Source: Candidatus Nomurabacteria bacterium (lineage in GTDB: Bacteria; Patescibacteriota; Minisyncoccia; Phycocordibacterales; CAIJYI01). From it: DNA of 64,000 nucleotides. Below, in pieces: positions 3,715-64,000 of the stretch (the first letter of the stretch is position 1; each line of letters starts with the position of its first letter). The notes beneath the pieces were generated by a model. That model was not told where the DNA came from. It did not search any database and was given only the letters and a program-made list of their open reading frames with translations. The translations under genes and the position numbers were made by a program. The stretch lies in the NCBI GenBank assembly GCA_943356445.1, contig CALREZ010000003.1:6125-70124 (forward strand), given 5' to 3'.

Positions 3715-4236
3715 ATGAAAGAAAAAAATAGTGAAGAAATAAAAATAGTATCGCCTTTGGAAGAAGCTTCCATAAAAGTAACGGCGTGGGTGGGTACGCC
3801 CGTTTCTGTCGTCATGCACACGATATTCTTCATCGGAATTTTTTCCCTGAAATGGTTCGGCATGCCTCTTGACCAAATACTTCTTGTTCTCACTACGGCA
3901 GTATCGTTGGAAGCGATTTATCTCGCGATTTTCATTCAGATGACCATCAACCGCCAAGAAGCAAAACTTCATGAAGTGCGCGAAGACATTGAAGAACTCG
4001 GTGAGGATGTTGAGGAGATCGGAAAGGATGTTGATGAGCTGTCGGAAGACCTTGAAGAAATCGGGAAGGACGTTGACGAACTCGGCGAAGACTTTGAAGA
4101 GATAACGGAAGATATGGAGGAAGAAGAAAAGAAAGAAGAGCAATATCGTTCAGAAAGAAACAAAAATCTGCAAAAAATAGAGACGACGCTCCAATCGCTT
4201 ATTGTGGAGTTGGAAAAGATGAAGGAGAAGAAGTAA
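3715..4236 (+). CDS. DUF1003-family membrane protein with a C-terminal acidic coiled-coil built from tandem 11-residue repeats
   Basis: LDQILLVLTTAVSLEAIYLAIFIQMTINRQEAK matches the DUF1003 core (..LSLEA......I.MSQNRQ). The C-terminus repeats EDVEEIGKDVDELSEDLEEIGKDVDELGEDFEEI. Confidence 0.55.
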   Translation: MKEKNSEEIKIVSPLEEASIKVTAWVGTPVSVVMHTIFFIGIFSLKWFGMPLDQILLVLTTAVSLEAIYLAIFIQMTINRQEAKLHEVREDIEELGEDVEEIGKDVDELSEDLEEIGKDVDELGEDFEEITEDMEEEEKKEEQYRSERNKNLQKIETTLQSLIVELEKMKEKK

Positions 4237-58080: not shown

Positions 58081-58782
58081 TTACGGCTTTTTTTCTTCAT
58101 CCGGCATGTCCTGTAACAACTTTTCAGTTAATTTATCTGCTTCTATCCATCTTATCGTAAGTTCTATTAAATCTTTAAGGTCTTTTACATCTTTATTAAC
58201 CCACTTTCGTTCATAGTGTGTCTCATCATTCCCAAGCCAAGCAGCACGTTTAGTAACAATTTTTAATTGTTGCTGATCAACTCTCTTTTCTATAGTATTT
58301 CCTAAAAATTCCTTTTTAATATCTTCTGCCTCGGCTATATTTTTAGAAATAAGATAATCTTTAATAAGAAATTCAAGAGCTTTACGGTAGCCAGGACCAC
58401 ACACCATGTCTAATTCATTTTGTTCTGCAAAATACGATTGATTGTAAATTTTCTCAAATTCAGAAGAAACTTGCTGGATGATTTCAGAAAATTGACGAGT
58501 GGTATTTTTAACTGGTAATGATTTCTTTAAATAAAAAAATTGTGGAGTTCCAGAATATAATCCTAAAAAAATATTCTGACATTTTTCACTCGGACACCTA
58601 AAAACAATCTGAAGGCCTGTTTCATCATATACACCCTCTTTATAAAATCCTTGACCTATATTTGGAGTGATTTGTTTATGGCAAACAGGACATAAATCAG
58701 GTCTTTTATCATATTTTGCCACCACGTTTGAACCATTTTGGTGTATTGCTTGTATATTAAACATGTTACTTTTAAATTCCAA
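58081..58782 (-). CDS. Zinc-ribbon protein with a DUF4145-like C-terminal region; candidate defence-associated protein
   Basis: CPVCHK...(22)...CPSEKC four-Cys ribbon. The C-terminal RAAWLGNDETHYERKW...LIELTIRWIE resembles the DUF4145 xGNxxxH block; this is from memory and uncertain. Confidence 0.45.
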   Translation of the reverse strand: MEFKSNMFNIQAIHQNGSNVVAKYDKRPDLCPVCHKQITPNIGQGFYKEGVYDETGLQIVFRCPSEKCQNIFLGLYSGTPQFFYLKKSLPVKNTTRQFSEIIQQVSSEFEKIYNQSYFAEQNELDMVCGPGYRKALEFLIKDYLISKNIAEAEDIKKEFLGNTIEKRVDQQQLKIVTKRAAWLGNDETHYERKWVNKDVKDLKDLIELTIRWIEADKLTEKLLQDMPDEEKKP

Positions 58783-58880
58783 TAACCTTTTTATTATAAA
58801 AACTTTTTTGTGGATAACTTTTTGATTTTCTATTTTTTTTCTATTATACTATTTCTATAAATACAAAGTCAACAAACACA

Positions 58881-60389
58881 ATGCTCACAAAACGACCGAA
58901 AGAAGTTCTTGATTTTATTAAAGAGTACTCAAAAAAGAAAGGGTATGCCCCCTCTTTGGAGGAAATCCAACGAAAGTTAAAACTTGCGTCAGTCTCTACT
59001 GCTCATTTTCACGTAACCAAACTTAAAGAAGGAGGCTATTTAGATAAAGTTGGAAATAAAGCTCGTGCAATTAGTCTTACCTCCAGTGAACGATTAGTAA
59101 AAATCCCCCTCTTAGGAATAATAGTTGCGGGCTTTCCGATAGAAACGATTTCCGAAAAGGAGACAATCGCTATTCCTCAAAGCAAAGTACCAAAACAAGG
59201 TTCTCTCTTTGCTCTAAAAGTGATGGGAAATAGCATGATAGAAGAAAATATAAATGACGGAGATATTGTTTTAATAAAACAACAATCCGTAGCGGAAAAT
59301 GGCGAAAAGGTTGTGGCTTTGGTAAATAATTACGAAACGACATTAAAAAAGTTTTACCAAGAAAAAAATTGCATTCGTTTAGAGCCGGCGAACAGAAAAA
59401 TGGATTCCATTATTATTTCCAAGAATACTCCGTTTGAAATTCAAGGCATTGTCACCGATATTATCAAAAGCGAAGAAAATACCGATTACAATACTTTCAT
59501 TTCAAGAAATCTTGTTTCAAGAGAAAAAAAGTTACCATTGAATAAAATTATTCTCAATGACGCGGTTGAAGAATTAAGAAAATTACCAAGCGAAAGCTGT
59601 GATGTTATAATCATTGATCCGCCTTACAACATAGGGAAAGATTTCGGGAATAATTTTGATAAAAGAGAAATGTCCGAATATGTAAAATGGTCAAAAAGCT
59701 GGATTGAAGAATCTATCAGGATTATGAAACCAACAGGAACATTATTCATTTATGGATTTAGTGAAATACTCGCACATCTTTCTGTTGAAATTTCTCTTAA
59801 TAAAAGATGGCTTATTTGGCATTACACCAATAAAAATGTCGCCTCTTTGCAGTTCTGGCAGAGAAGCCATGAATCAATAATTTGCGCTTGGAAAAATAGG
59901 CCTATTTTTAATCGTGACGAAGTGAGAGAACCTTACACGGAGGGTTTTTTAAATGGAGCTGCCGGCAAAGTAAGAAAGGGGACAATCGGCCGTTTTAGCA
60001 AAAATGGAAAAGAAACCGTTTATAATGCGCATGAAGGAGGTGCATTACCGAGAGATGTTATAAAAATACCAGCACTTGCCGGAGGTGCAGGAATGAACGA
60101 AAGATGGTTCATTTGCAAAACATGCAAAAACAATGTGTTTTCTCCAAGAGAGCTCAAACAGCATGCTGATCACGATGTAATGAAACACCCGACTCAAAAA
60201 CCAATTGAACTTTGTAGAAAGCTCATTAAATCCGCAATGCCAAAAAATGGCGGTGTCGTTCTCGTACCTTTCGTCGGAACCGGCTCTGAATGTCTCGCGG
60301 CAAAAGAACTTGGCAATGACTATATCGGTTTTGAAATCAATCCGGATTATATAAAGATCGCAGAGAAAACGATCTCATCATTAGATTAA
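58881..60389 (+). CDS. Fusion protein: a complete LexA-like repressor (winged HTH plus S24 autopeptidase) joined to a beta-class DPPY DNA methyltransferase (N6-adenine or N4-cytosine)
   Basis: Residues about 1-200: PSLEEIQRKLKLASVSTAHFHVTKL (HTH), IPLLGIIVAGFP (Ala-Gly cleavage site), LKVMGNSM (catalytic Ser) and TTLKKF (catalytic Lys). Together these align block-for-block with LexA. Residues about 215-502: IIIDPPYN (motif IV) precedes VPFVGTGSE (motif I), which is the beta-class order, plus HPTQKP. Confidence 0.8.
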   Translation: MLTKRPKEVLDFIKEYSKKKGYAPSLEEIQRKLKLASVSTAHFHVTKLKEGGYLDKVGNKARAISLTSSERLVKIPLLGIIVAGFPIETISEKETIAIPQSKVPKQGSLFALKVMGNSMIEENINDGDIVLIKQQSVAENGEKVVALVNNYETTLKKFYQEKNCIRLEPANRKMDSIIISKNTPFEIQGIVTDIIKSEENTDYNTFISRNLVSREKKLPLNKIILNDAVEELRKLPSESCDVIIIDPPYNIGKDFGNNFDKREMSEYVKWSKSWIEESIRIMKPTGTLFIYGFSEILAHLSVEISLNKRWLIWHYTNKNVASLQFWQRSHESIICAWKNRPIFNRDEVREPYTEGFLNGAAGKVRKGTIGRFSKNGKETVYNAHEGGALPRDVIKIPALAGGAGMNERWFICKTCKNNVFSPRELKQHADHDVMKHPTQKPIELCRKLIKSAMPKNGGVVLVPFVGTGSECLAAKELGNDYIGFEINPDYIKIAEKTISSLD

Positions 60390-61000
60390 ATTTCTCCGAT
60401 TGTTTTGATATTTTTTAAAGTAATATAATTAGAGAGTTTTTTGTTATAAACAGACAGCTGTTGTAAAACGTCTTTCTTTTCTCTTCCTGGTGGAATTATC
60501 ACGATAAATCCCCATTCTATTAATTTTTCTATCGTGACATTTTGAGTTGAACGACTTCCATCTTTTCTTTGTGTGACTCTTTCCAAAAGATATTGTCCCA
60601 ATTTTTTATTTTGCCCAAAAACAAGAAACTGTAAATCGCTCGCCCCTTTCCAGACAGCAACTACGGTAAATAGCTTTTTATCAGAAAAAGCTTTTGCTTT
60701 TTCTTCGTTTGTATCATTCCATGTCCCACCCCATCTTTTAGAAGATAAACTACACTGTTTTACCTCAAGAAATTCCCCTGTTGAACTTCTTTTAGCATCA
60801 AAACCGTGCTTTTCGGTATTAACCAAATCAAAACCCAAATAACCCGCAACGATAGTATCTCTTATTGAATTTATTGTTGTATCGGTATCGTATATTTCAA
60901 ATTTATCTTGAAATTCTGACAATTGTTGCAAAGCTAATAATCCCAATTGTTTGAATTCGTTTGAAAGCGGTTTAAAATTTCCCTTTTCAAAAATGTTCAT
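60386..61000 (-). CDS. Putative type II restriction endonuclease (PD-(D/E)XK-like), convergent with and overlapping the methyltransferase gene by 4 nt
   Basis: Position opposite the MTase, and GFDAK-(x9)-EFLEVKQ fits D...(D/E)xK. No family was recognised, so this is inference. Confidence 0.4.
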   Translation of the reverse strand: MNIFEKGNFKPLSNEFKQLGLLALQQLSEFQDKFEIYDTDTTINSIRDTIVAGYLGFDLVNTEKHGFDAKRSSTGEFLEVKQCSLSSKRWGGTWNDTNEEKAKAFSDKKLFTVVAVWKGASDLQFLVFGQNKKLGQYLLERVTQRKDGSRSTQNVTIEKLIEWGFIVIIPPGREKKDVLQQLSVYNKKLSNYITLKNIKTIGEI

Positions 61001-61651: not shown

Positions 61652-64000
61652 CTACCACTTCCATATTATCCACAACGCGCCCCCGACAAAAGAAACGAGG
61701 AGAATTCCTTCAGCGGCTTTTGTTTTGGGGAAGAATGGGGTGGCGAGGAGAGAGGAGGATTGGATTGATGGAGTTGTGGTTGGGACGACGACGGACGACG
61801 TGGATTCCGGCTCAGGGCCGGAATGACGGGGGACGGGAGATGTGTTTATTGCCGTTTCGTTATTATTGCGAATGACAAACGAAGGATTCTGAGAAAGTAC
61901 CACTCCTTCCCCAAGGTCTCCCCTTTCCCCGTCGCTTTGCTCCTCCTTAAGGGAAGACCTTGGGGAAGGAATCACGTTTTGTGAAAGAAACAACACGGGG
62001 ACAGCGCCGGAAACGACGGGTTTTGATTCTTCTTTTTTGGGACTCAAATCGGGGAGTACTGTTTCTCCCGCTTTCGGAGAGAGTGTGAATTCCAAAATGC
62101 CGTCGCCGTTTTCGTCTACCAATAAAGGCGATAGGTTTGATATTTCTCCACCCGCAGAGATATTCATGGTTGCGGTCGTGTTTTCATTACTCGGTATTCC
62201 GGCGAAAGAAGAGGAAGAAAGAACGGTATCGCCGCTGACGGTTTCCACCTCAAGGGTGAACGAGCCTTCTTCGTAGCCATCTAGAAAAAGACGAACGTTT
62301 GCAGTACTGGGGATGCTGACGTATTTCACTTCGCCGAAAGTCATGTACCTGCTGCCGGGGATGTTTTCTTCTGTTTGGTTTGTCGTAGTGGAAACGCCGG
62401 TGTGGTTGCCAAGATTGTCGTAGAAATCAATAGTAAGAGGAGAATGGAGGGTAAAACGGAGACGAACATCATTTTCGTTTCCTTGTGGAGCAAGAGTTGA
62501 AACATATTGAACGGCAGAAGAGCTATTACGAGTCACAATACCTCTAACAAAAGTAAGAAGTTCTGGAACTTCAAAAATATCTGAGTGATGTCTTCCAAGA
62601 GGAGCGGAAATAACATGTTCTTTATTATACTTTCTCAAATCCACCCAATACTTCCTCGCTCCGCTCGTCCAGAGCGCGCTGCTCGTCACGACCGTTCCAT
62701 CTCCGTCTATCGTCATGACCGGACGGAATTCCAACGCGGGGTCGGTATGGCAGGCTTCCAGGGTTGCTACGGTTTTGCAGCCGGTTTTTGAACCTTGATA
62801 ATACTCAATCGTCTTCAGCGTTTCTTCTCCCCAGCCGGCGATTTCGGTGAGTTCCACTCCGGTCGGAGGCGCCCAAGCGTCAAGGGTATTATGCAAAAGT
62901 GCGGCGTTATCAAAAAGTGCCGTATTCCCTTTCCATGGGTTTTTCAAATCGTCGTTCACTGCCAGAGCTTCCCGATTTTGGTCGGTCATAAAATTCCGCA
63001 ATCTTTCTTCGGAGCGTATCGTCGTTCCGTATTTTGCGCGCCAGTCGGCGAGCAAAGGAAAATCACCGAACTTGATAACCGGGTCATCGGTGTACGTAAA
63101 GTAATTTGCGGACGGCAGTAATCCGTAAGCGCTCGGCATGTTGTTGGCGAGGGTTCTTGCCTCCGACGGCGTAATGATATTGTTGAGCCAGTTATCAAAC
63201 GGGAGGCCTTGCTGGAAACCGTGCAGAATCGCTCCGACCGCGGACGGCGTTCCCGATTGAGGAGAAGCGACGAAAATCATTTGATCGGTGAGTTTGGAGG
63301 CGTCATCTCCCAATTTTATCGTTAATTCTTTTGCCACCAAACCGCCGTTGGAGTGCGCGATGATCGTCACTTTTCCCGTGTCCGAAGTTTCGGCGAGCGC
63401 GCGATATTTTTGCACCATCGCATCATCTACGGTATCAACCACAGAGTATCGCCAGTCATATGGGAATGATTGCCAGTTATGTATCGTTCCGTCGGTTTTC
63501 AGGTCATTCATTTTTCCCATGAACGACTGATAGATATTTCCTTTTACCGGCGCATAGGCGTTATCAATAATATCGCCGGCATATATTCCCGAGAGTATGG
63601 AAGTTCCGTCGCTGTTCATATAGAGATGCGAGTTGTCGTGGAGAATTTCCGGTTCCCACAATCTCGTGCCATCCAAACGATACAATCGGCTCGCTTCCAA
63701 CCCCGGCAAAAACGCCACGTTGGAATATCCGGCAGTAAATGAAAGTTCCCCGCTTGCCGGAAATCGCAACGTTCCGCCGTTCGCTTCAAAGTGATATCCG
63801 TAATGGCCTTTCGGGAAAGTTTGAACGAGAGAATATGCGCCGTTATCCAAAGCGAGTGAATAATGACTGGTCGCATTTCCATCATTCGTCCAAAGCATTA
63901 CATCGCTTGGCGCTGTTCCCGTGTAAGAAACGCCGAAAGTGAATTTCGTTTTATCGGCAACGCCTTTCGCATCTTGCCATCCGTCGTCCTCCGTTTCGGT
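61652..64000 (-). CDS. Large secreted alpha/beta-hydrolase (lipase/PGAP1-like, GHSxG-type AHSNGG nucleophile elbow) with a Pro/Ser/Thr-rich stalk and C-terminal TM anchor; the N-terminus lies beyond the window end
   Basis: TIIAHSNGGLVAKEL nucleophile elbow; C-terminal PEPESTSSVVVPTTTPS linker plus ILLVSFVGGALWIIWKW anchor. The reading frame stays open through 64000. Confidence 0.6.
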   Translation of the reverse strand, partial: TETEDDGWQDAKGVADKTKFTFGVSYTGTAPSDVMLWTNDGNATSHYSLALDNGAYSLVQTFPKGHYGYHFEANGGTLRFPASGELSFTAGYSNVAFLPGLEASRLYRLDGTRLWEPEILHDNSHLYMNSDGTSILSGIYAGDIIDNAYAPVKGNIYQSFMGKMNDLKTDGTIHNWQSFPYDWRYSVVDTVDDAMVQKYRALAETSDTGKVTIIAHSNGGLVAKELTIKLGDDASKLTDQMIFVASPQSGTPSAVGAILHGFQQGLPFDNWLNNIITPSEARTLANNMPSAYGLLPSANYFTYTDDPVIKFGDFPLLADWRAKYGTTIRSEERLRNFMTDQNREALAVNDDLKNPWKGNTALFDNAALLHNTLDAWAPPTGVELTEIAGWGEETLKTIEYYQGSKTGCKTVATLEACHTDPALEFRPVMTIDGDGTVVTSSALWTSGARKYWVDLRKYNKEHVISAPLGRHHSDIFEVPELLTFVRGIVTRNSSSAVQYVSTLAPQGNENDVRLRFTLHSPLTIDFYDNLGNHTGVSTTTNQTEENIPGSRYMTFGEVKYVSIPSTANVRLFLDGYEEGSFTLEVETVSGDTVLSSSSFAGIPSNENTTATMNISAGGEISNLSPLLVDENGDGILEFTLSPKAGETVLPDLSPKKEESKPVVSGAVPVLFLSQNVIPSPRSSLKEEQSDGERGDLGEGVVLSQNPSFVIRNNNETAINTSPVPRHSGPEPESTSSVVVPTTTPSIQSSSLLATPFFPKTKAAEGILLVSFVGGALWIIWKW

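Follow-up and report, generated by a model that had tools for sequence, protein, structure and literature searches.

A LexA-type repressor fused to a DNA methyltransferase in a restriction-modification module of Patescibacteria

Why should a DNA methyltransferase carry a complete self-cleaving repressor of the SOS type? This question is raised by a gene found in a stretch of 64,000 nucleotides from Candidatus Nomurabacteria (assembly GCA_943356445.1, contig CALREZ010000003.1, positions 6,125 to 70,124), which was analysed over its whole length and is called the window below. The gene is one uninterrupted frame on the forward strand (58881..60389), begins with ATG and encodes a LexA-methyltransferase of 502 amino acids. 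It lies exactly where an earlier examination of the letters alone (hereafter the sequence-only reading) had proposed the fusion, in a single open reading frame (ORF), of a complete LexA-type module with a beta-class amino-methyltransferase. We propose that the protein is a methylase with its own LexA controller, which would repress its own gene, cut itself upon DNA damage and so allow a burst of methylase, the whole acting as a homeostat. We attribute to this reading a probability of about 0.6. The coordinates of the features are given in Table 1.

The fusion protein and its family

The three domains of the protein are recognized by Pfam profiles above the curated cut-offs: LexA_DNA_bind (PF01726) at residues 2-63 with 56.5 bits for a cut-off of 23.7, Peptidase_S24 (PF00717) at residues 76-191 with 94 bits and N6_N4_Mtase (PF01555) at residues 241-496 with 130 bits. 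The NCBIfam LexA equivalog TIGR00498 is also passed (176.6 bits, cut-off 110.95), covering residues 2-196 only. In a BLASTP alignment with the LexA of E. coli (29% identity, E value 5e-26), the motifs VAAGEP, GMSM and TVKR of the latter face IVAGFP, GNSM and TLKK of the fusion, so that A83-G84, S118 and K156 occupy the columns of the scissile bond and of the catalytic Ser and Lys. All the LexA elements announced by the sequence-only reading, namely the winged helix-turn-helix (wHTH), the S24 domain, the Ala-Gly bond and the Ser/Lys pair, are therefore present. The recognition helix of the window protein reads ASVSTAHFH (residues 36-44).

In the second half of the protein, the motif DPPY (246-249) precedes FVGTGS (464-469), as had been noticed, and this is the motif order of the beta class. 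This half also matches the PADLOC model MTase_II (E value 4e-47), and its relatives in the PDB include M.RsrI, M.MboIIA and CcrM. Between the catalytic motif and the S-adenosylmethionine motif, an invariant cluster CxxC...H..H....H (C412, C415, H428, H431 and H436) was observed, which may bind zinc as part of the target-recognition region. A promoter-like site at 59583-59611 was considered as the origin of a LexA-less methylase isoform, which is unlikely, no in-frame start downstream of it preserving DPPY.

A search among 5.8 billion proteins recovered 5646 matches, and the best 120 of them are proteins of about 505 amino acids, 69-100% identical to the query, that contain all three domains; where a name is given by NCBI, it is "transcriptional repressor LexA", with lineages of Patescibacteria. 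When one genome per species was searched (185,579 representatives), relatives were found encoded in 294 genomes, and the best 80 of these carry full-length fusions with 63-81% identity. Most of these 80 hosts are Patescibacteria, including Paceibacterota/Parcubacteria, Falkow-, Jorgensen-, Nomura-, Kaiser-, Taylor-, Yanofsky-, Magasanik- and Dojkabacteria, among others. The same architecture is thus repeated in each homologue of these two sets, always uninterrupted, and the identical intact protein is encoded on contigs of separate assemblies. These observations rule out that separate lexA-like and methylase genes were joined artificially by the assembly or by a frameshift, an explanation whose probability we consider negligible.

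The sequence-only reading had seen in the fusion a rarity, and in LexA itself an unusual protein for the Candidate Phyla Radiation (CPR). The first idea has to be replaced by that of a widespread family. The second finds no support: the fusion alone is common in these bacteria, and a paper by Sanchez-Osuna et al. from 2017 (Environ Microbiol 19:3465) is reportedly devoted to the SOS network of Patescibacteria. Full-text literature searches, whose coverage that 2017 paper falls outside, yielded no account of a fusion between LexA and a methylase; the word "LexA" does not occur in a 2025 review of restriction-modification (R-M) biology, nor do "LexA", "S24", "fusion" or "fused" in a 2026 survey of CPR methyltransferases. 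The architecture is apparently undescribed, as had been supposed. The family is large, comes from a third of bacterial diversity that is still poorly understood, and bears the plain annotation "LexA", which would mislead surveys of SOS regulation in Patescibacteria.

From the alignment of 82 orthologs, we observe that A83, G84, S118, K156, DPPY, F464/G466/G468 and the cluster C412xxC415...H428/H431/H436 are invariant in all the sequences. The domains differ in their mean identity to the window protein: the methylase reaches 81%, followed by the S24 domain with 62% and the wHTH with 58%, and the linker falls to 30%. Both the invariant residues and the identities of the domains indicate that the two enzymatic halves are under purifying selection.

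Carriage of the fusion by plasmids, phages or viral contigs was also considered and was rejected: no full-length fusion (at least 80% protein coverage) was detected in 72,556 plasmid records nor in 50,697 phage records, and the best 80 relatives on IMG/VR viral contigs match the methylase half only. These methylase-only relatives, devoid of LexA and 49-57% identical, are frequent on IMG/VR contigs (L095-L174), many of which are labelled GVMAG (giant-virus metagenome-assembled genomes).

The restriction-modification module

Comparison of seven diverged contexts shows that only one neighbour of the fusion gene is conserved, a convergent gene that overlaps it at the 3' end, the other flanking genes being all different and of the ordinary housekeeping kind. 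Such a convergent, 3'-overlapping partner is present in 82 of 85 loci. Among these 82 partners, 71 belong to the family RE_TaqI (120.9 bits for the profile in the one partner tested), seven, including that of the window, to a second family and four to a third one. The partner in the window belongs to a family without annotation and is predicted to adopt a PvuII-like fold by a structure model based on an alignment, the model built from the single sequence having a predicted local distance difference test score (pLDDT) of 37. That this protein could be a diverged RE_TaqI was rejected at the sequence level (BLASTP E value above 1, and no Pfam match even at an E value of 10). The members of the third family, encoded on the reverse strand of their contigs (L039 5521-6267, L068 5547-6200, L081 5513-6148 and L087 5549-6232), have 211-248 amino acids and share the motifs ISAKSG, SSxRLT, YLCxAR and KMSNQLW; no Pfam match was found in the three members tested. 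Since this third family occupies the endonuclease slot, the same conserved methylase is combined with endonucleases of three families unrelated in sequence, and the module has very probably kept its methylase through at least two replacements of the endonuclease.

The tetranucleotide TCGA is found 33 times in the window, for about 270 occurrences expected from a Markov model and about 455 in dinucleotide shuffles. With an observed/expected ratio of 0.12, that is a depletion of about 8-fold, it is the lowest of the 16 four-base palindromes, and it is also the most avoided one in the pooled related loci (ratio of 0.45). The convergent partner in 82 of 85 loci, the PvuII-like fold predicted for that of the window and the avoidance of TCGA bear out the membership of an R-M system put forward by the sequence-only reading. 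The module is a mobile Type II R-M system; judging from the partner family and the site avoidance, it is most probably specific for TCGA, with N6-adenine methylation.

The TaqI system is linked to this module by the RE_TaqI endonuclease found in 71 of 85 related loci and by its site TCGA, the most avoided tetranucleotide here. M.TaqI is a gamma-class methylase without regulatory domain, whereas the fused methylase belongs to the beta class and the endonuclease of the window to an unrelated family with a PvuII-like fold. A second comparison can be made with the R-M systems controlled by C-proteins, for which passages of three papers describe a convergent gene order (Esp1396I, Kpn2I and Csp231I; PMC6237814, PMC8053105 and PMC9757035). 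In both cases a dedicated regulator, small in those systems, times the methylase relative to the endonuclease, and several relatives of the window locus show the order M -> <- R <- C, with a C-protein controller (HTH_3) encoded upstream of the endonuclease gene (L004, L008 and L014). In contrast, no C-protein gene was found in the window, where the ORF upstream of the endonuclease gene encodes a hydrophobic, probably membrane protein of 141 amino acids; the methylase is under its own fused LexA, and C-proteins have no cleavage switch.

In Kuenenbacteria (L010 and L011, 7531-8135), the RE_TaqI gene seems broken into ORFs of 33 and 168 amino acids next to an intact LexA-methylase gene. This locus may represent decay towards an orphan methylase.

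Candidate operator, probable autorepression and the possible role of self-cleavage

What does the LexA half control? The fusion gene is preceded by a sigma-70-type promoter, P_M, which is found in a similar arrangement upstream of the fusion gene in related loci. Two copies of the direct repeat TTTTCTAT (58826-58833 and 58837-58844) lie over this promoter, and such a pair is unique in the 64 kb. In a comparison of the upstream regions of 83 loci, direct repeats were found in 52 to 56 of them. Their sequence varies with the lineage (TTTCTAT, TTTCGG, GTTCGG, GCTCGG, TTTAGG or TTCTAG), and both copies always switch together. The repeat type was then set against the recognition helix in 77 classified loci. 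Residue 43 of the helix is F, Y or H in all 56 loci with TAT-type repeats and E or Q in 20 of the 21 loci with GG-type repeats. At position 41, A predominates with TAT-type repeats, and the TTCGG group has I or V. The association has a Fisher p value of 1e-17 when relatedness is ignored, the loci forming 57 clusters at 90% identity. Because the repeats overlie the promoter and co-vary with residues 41 and 43 of the helix, the fused LexA domain very probably binds them and represses its own gene, and the regulatory role that the sequence-only reading had given to the LexA part is thereby strengthened. The same geometry is known in Alphaproteobacteria, whose LexA box is the direct repeat GTTC-N7-GTTC (PMC4951493).

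An inverted-repeat LexA box was considered and rejected: the apparent palindrome TATACT-N3-AGTATA corresponds to two facing -10 hexamers, and the operator is a direct repeat. A third copy of TTTCTAT is present at 58852-58858, 14-15 bp past the second repeat and just 3' of the -10 element, in the lineage of the window only. In a few loci (L054, L055, L056 and L080) the operator repeats contain TCGA (TTTCGAT, TTTCGAC and, twice, AATCGAAAG), so that methylation by the module could affect the binding of its own repressor.

The fusion resembles a typical LexA of the S24 family (TIGR00498) by its wHTH, its Ala-Gly bond, its Ser/Lys columns, an operator over its own promoter and a repeat geometry identical to that of the alphaproteobacterial box; it differs by a methylase of 300 amino acids and by the endonuclease gene with which it travels, and nothing in the window points to a repair regulon. 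Another idea is that the protein is a general SOS repressor of a chromosomal repair regulon, in which the methylase would be incidental. Such an idea could appeal to the score above the TIGR00498 equivalog cut-off, to the name given to the homologues by NCBI and to the few closest standalone LexA relatives that are traceable, which come from non-CPR bacteria. Against it, the operator pair occurs once in the 64 kb of the window, at the promoter of the fusion itself, and neither the region before the endonuclease gene nor any other part of the window holds a further copy of the operator; the distribution is patchy (294 of 185,579 species), always with an endonuclease gene amid otherwise unrelated neighbours; and the operator specificity varies by lineage, even between two modules on one contig. 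We regard a general SOS repressor as hardly credible.

The position of the operator and its co-variation with the helix indicate a DNA-binding role for which cleavage is not needed. The LexA module could accordingly be only a dimeric autorepressor that times the methylase on entry into a new host, like the HTH of SsoII-type methylases or the C-proteins, its cleavage having no signalling role. Enzymes of the SsoII type are C5-cytosine methylases that have a short HTH region and no protease domain, act at an inverted-repeat site and are encoded divergently from their endonuclease; we know of no signal input to them. The fusion is not a member of this type, being an amino-methylase (DPPY) with a full autoproteolytic module, a direct-repeat operator and a convergent endonuclease. 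The likeness is that M.SsoII and M.Ecl18kI also regulate the transcription of their own system, by means of an N-terminal domain that binds DNA near their own promoter. M.SsoII (PMC6100179) provides a precedent for a fused regulatory HTH, and a classical C-protein gene is kept upstream of the endonuclease gene in some relatives. For autorepression, however, a simple HTH would suffice, whereas the A-G bond and the Ser/Lys pair are invariant in 82 of 82 orthologs, the four cleavage residues being likewise intact in 42 of 43 long LexA-methylase representatives, while their surroundings have diverged down to 53-62% identity. Such invariance amid divergence is hard to explain without selection for cleavage, and we find a role limited to autorepression possible, though unlikely.

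In the reading that we prefer, that of a methylase under its own damage-sensing controller, the fusion would dimerise through its S24 domain and its wHTH would bind the two TTTTCTAT repeats, 11 bp apart, over its own promoter. Once enough methylase has accumulated, its synthesis would be repressed, as LexA does at its own promoter and SsoII-type methylases at theirs. Upon activation, most plausibly by RecA on single-stranded DNA, the protein would cut itself at A83-G84, parting a DNA-binding fragment of 83 residues from the S24-methylase body. The trigger would be DNA damage, including the double-strand breaks made by its own endonuclease when methylation lags. The promoter would then open and a burst of methylase would restore protection, forming a damage-sensing homeostat akin to restriction alleviation. 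The endonuclease gene is convergent, with its own promoter and no copy of the operator. The comparison of loci strongly suggests the DNA binding and the autorepression; self-cleavage, expected from the strict conservation of the Ala-Gly bond and of the Ser/Lys dyad, and its triggering by RecA are more faintly suggested by analogy with LexA, and the direction of the physiological effect is likewise only hinted at.

Several points weigh against this reading. No recA or other SOS gene is present in the 64-kb window. The residue that precedes the scissile Ala is Val in the window protein and Ala in most orthologs. The invariant catalytic residues could equally serve a trigger other than RecA, or a spontaneous turnover at a slow rate. 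Since hemimethylated DNA is usually spared by Type II enzymes, it is not self-evident what would be gained from a damage-induced burst of methylase.

The opposite outcome, a loss of methylase after cleavage, is also possible. Cleavage would in this case inactivate or destabilise the methylase, and damage or phage attack would tip the balance to the endonuclease and to cell death, as in an abortive-infection or addiction switch. In E. coli, the fragments of cleaved LexA are degraded by ClpXP and Lon, and the new C-terminus that the cut would leave (...IAA or ...IVA) resembles the degradation signals of these fragments. The modules moreover sit among defence genes, and R-M modules are described as addiction systems in passages of one paper (PMC3874152). 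The sequence nevertheless gives no sign that the S24-methylase fragment is unstable, and cleavage would also derepress the methylase gene, which acts in the opposite direction. A switch towards cell death appears improbable to us.

The logic of the proposed homeostat can be compared with the alleviation of Type I restriction after DNA damage, which proceeds by the ClpXP-dependent loss of HsdR. In both cases damage would shift the balance from restriction to the protection of the chromosome; there a host protease acts on the restriction subunit, whereas here a repressor fused to the methylase would cleave itself. The recruitment of an autocleaving LexA-like repressor to sense damage of the host DNA is also found in the S24 repressors of mobile elements (lambda CI type, SetR), but these are free-standing proteins that govern genes of lysis or transfer, without enzyme fusion and without control of restriction.

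The control of R-M systems is currently understood through C-proteins, HTH regions fused to methylases, antisense RNA and promoter methylation, and to our knowledge no mechanism among them responds to the state of the cell. By analogy with LexA, the novelty here would be a regulator borne by the methylase of an R-M system and endowed with a proteolytic signal input. A methylase with a proteolytic sensor of the SOS type would give R-M systems a direct input from DNA damage, self-inflicted damage included, which bears on how bacteria avoid the autoimmunity of restriction enzymes. The co-varying operator/helix pairs constitute a natural data set for the evolution of LexA specificity, and orthogonal repressors inducible by damage could perhaps be drawn from them. 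The predictions can easily be tested in vitro and in E. coli.

Table 1. Features of the LexA-methyltransferase locus, in window coordinates.
Feature	Position	Strand	Description and basis
LexA-methyltransferase fusion gene	58881..60389	+	502 aa; ORF scan, Pfam, NCBIfam, database homologues
LexA winged helix-turn-helix (residues 2-63)	58884..59069	+	Pfam PF01726; helix/operator co-variation
S24 autopeptidase and dimerisation domain (residues 76-191)	59106..59453	+	Pfam PF00717; alignment with E. coli LexA
Ala83-Gly84 scissile bond (S24 domain)	59127-59132	+	
Ser118 (S24 domain)	59232-59234	+	
Lys156 (S24 domain)	59346-59348	+	
Linker between S24 and methylase (residues 197-220)	59469..59540	+	Poorly conserved, 30% mean identity
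Beta-class N6-adenine DNA methyltransferase domain (residues 241-496)	59601..60368	+	Pfam PF01555; PADLOC; invariant motifs
Methylase motif DPPY	59616-59627	+	
Methylase motif C412xxC415...H428..H431..H436	60114-60188	+	
Methylase motif FxGxG	60270-60284	+	
Convergent restriction endonuclease partner	60386..61000	-	204 aa; 4-bp overlap between its 3' end and that of the fusion gene
Promoter P_M of the fusion gene	58822..58850	+	-35 TTGATT, 17-nt spacer, -10 TATACT; consensus scan
Candidate LexA operator	58826..58844	+	Direct repeats TTTTCTAT, 11-bp period, in the P_M spacer, abutting the -10
DnaA-box-like element	58809..58817	-	Exact match to the consensus DnaA box, TTATCCACA, which reads TGTGGATAA on the + strand
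Reverse promoter P_rev	58843..58872	-	-35 TTGACT, 18-nt spacer, -10 TATAAT; 11/12 positions
Divergent upstream gene	58081..58782	-	233 aa; N-terminal Cys-rich region; weak DUF4145 match (E value 0.052)

Other control elements and the apparent portability of the LexA cassette

Three copies of TGTGGATAA, for 0.3 expected, were detected in the window (58809-58817, 1635-1643 and 61666-61674). Across the loci, the 130 nt that precede the fusion gene contain an exact copy in 63 of 83 cases (58 forward, 5 reverse), about 50-85 nt before its ATG in L004-L094, and 62 copies are counted in the promoter windows for 15 elsewhere in 670 kb. This element was rejected as LexA operator, as it stays invariant, without co-variation, in loci that differ in their recognition helix, and lies at variable distances from the repeats. 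It was also rejected as terminal inverted repeat of a mobile element, the inverted copy at 61666 being specific to the lineage and absent from other loci. TGTGGATAA may be bound by DnaA or by another host factor, which would link the expression of the methylase to replication.

The -10 element of the reverse promoter P_rev overlaps that of P_M, and P_rev is directed at the divergent upstream gene. A reverse promoter matching at least 10 of 12 positions was found in 52 of 82 loci, for 9 of 456 control windows. The upstream neighbour is divergent in 69 of 81 loci, and its identity changes from locus to locus (61 clusters among 79 genes). Many of these divergent genes are known or candidate anti-phage genes (Pycsar cyclase PycC, PDC-S19, PD-T7-4, ThsB-TIR, HEPN, Schlafen (SLFN_AlbA_2), SMODS, LmuA, HNH nucleases and trypsin-like proteases). 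The divergent gene of the window occupies this variable slot, downstream of P_rev, and may belong to the system. P_rev may only compete or interfere with P_M, or the LexA operator may also govern a variable defence cargo.

Is this control region tied to one methylase? The LexA half was searched against 1.84 billion cluster representatives. Its closest relatives are mostly proteins of 380-890 amino acids with LexA at residues 1-200, and ordinary LexAs of about 200 amino acids mostly appear only from about 44% identity downwards. Pfam was applied to 20 of the 43 long representatives mentioned above, and each of these 20 consists of LexA followed by a DNA methylase, of several classes: beta N6_N4 with varied target-recognition regions, permuted N6_N4, gamma N6_Mtase/Eco57I/TaqI_C and alpha D12. 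A gamma-class fusion from Nealsonbacteria has a promoter region laid out in the same way, together with a convergent partner gene and with upstream genes in divergent orientation, and in the gamma-class locus L179 two copies of TGTGGATAA flank the promoter (about 3934-3944 and 3987-3997).

The closest standalone LexA (213 amino acids, 56% identity) is encoded 14 bp upstream of a gene for a methyl-directed endonuclease of the DpnI family (L175, 1125-2551). It carries the same box, in two copies that flank the promoter (about 1041-1049 and 1107-1115), the repeats and the facing -10 elements, in a DpnI-type system that has no methylase to fuse. It looks like a solitary restriction enzyme controlled by LexA. 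From the fusions to several methylase classes and from this locus, the LexA clade appears to be dedicated to restriction systems, and the cassette looks like a portable controller of such systems. The sequence-only reading was right about the fusion itself and overlooked the presence of the same LexA cassette on several methylase classes and at a DpnI-type enzyme.

A wider proposal, which we advance tentatively and to which we give somewhat less than an even chance, is that restriction systems in Patescibacteria are usually regulated by this cassette. It would comprise TGTGGATAA, the lineage-specific repeats, two overlapping divergent promoters and a self-cleaving LexA, and would serve alpha, beta and gamma methylases as well as DpnI-type enzymes. 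Orthogonal operator/helix pairs would let several modules coexist, and restriction, possibly with the defence genes placed under the reverse promoter, would respond to damage or to self-restriction. If this is true, the portable cassette represents a new class of control of R-M and defence systems, in which C-proteins are replaced or supplemented by a proteolytic signal input.

Two LexA-methylase modules are adjacent on one contig of Falkowbacteria (L064, 875-3461 and 3900-6214). One of them combines a LexA-SPPY methylase with a convergent MvaI/BcnI endonuclease, and the other a methylase of the TCGA type with RE_TaqI. The two modules differ in their helix (STAHHH and STVHEH) and in their operator, which suggests a selection for orthogonal repressor/operator pairs.

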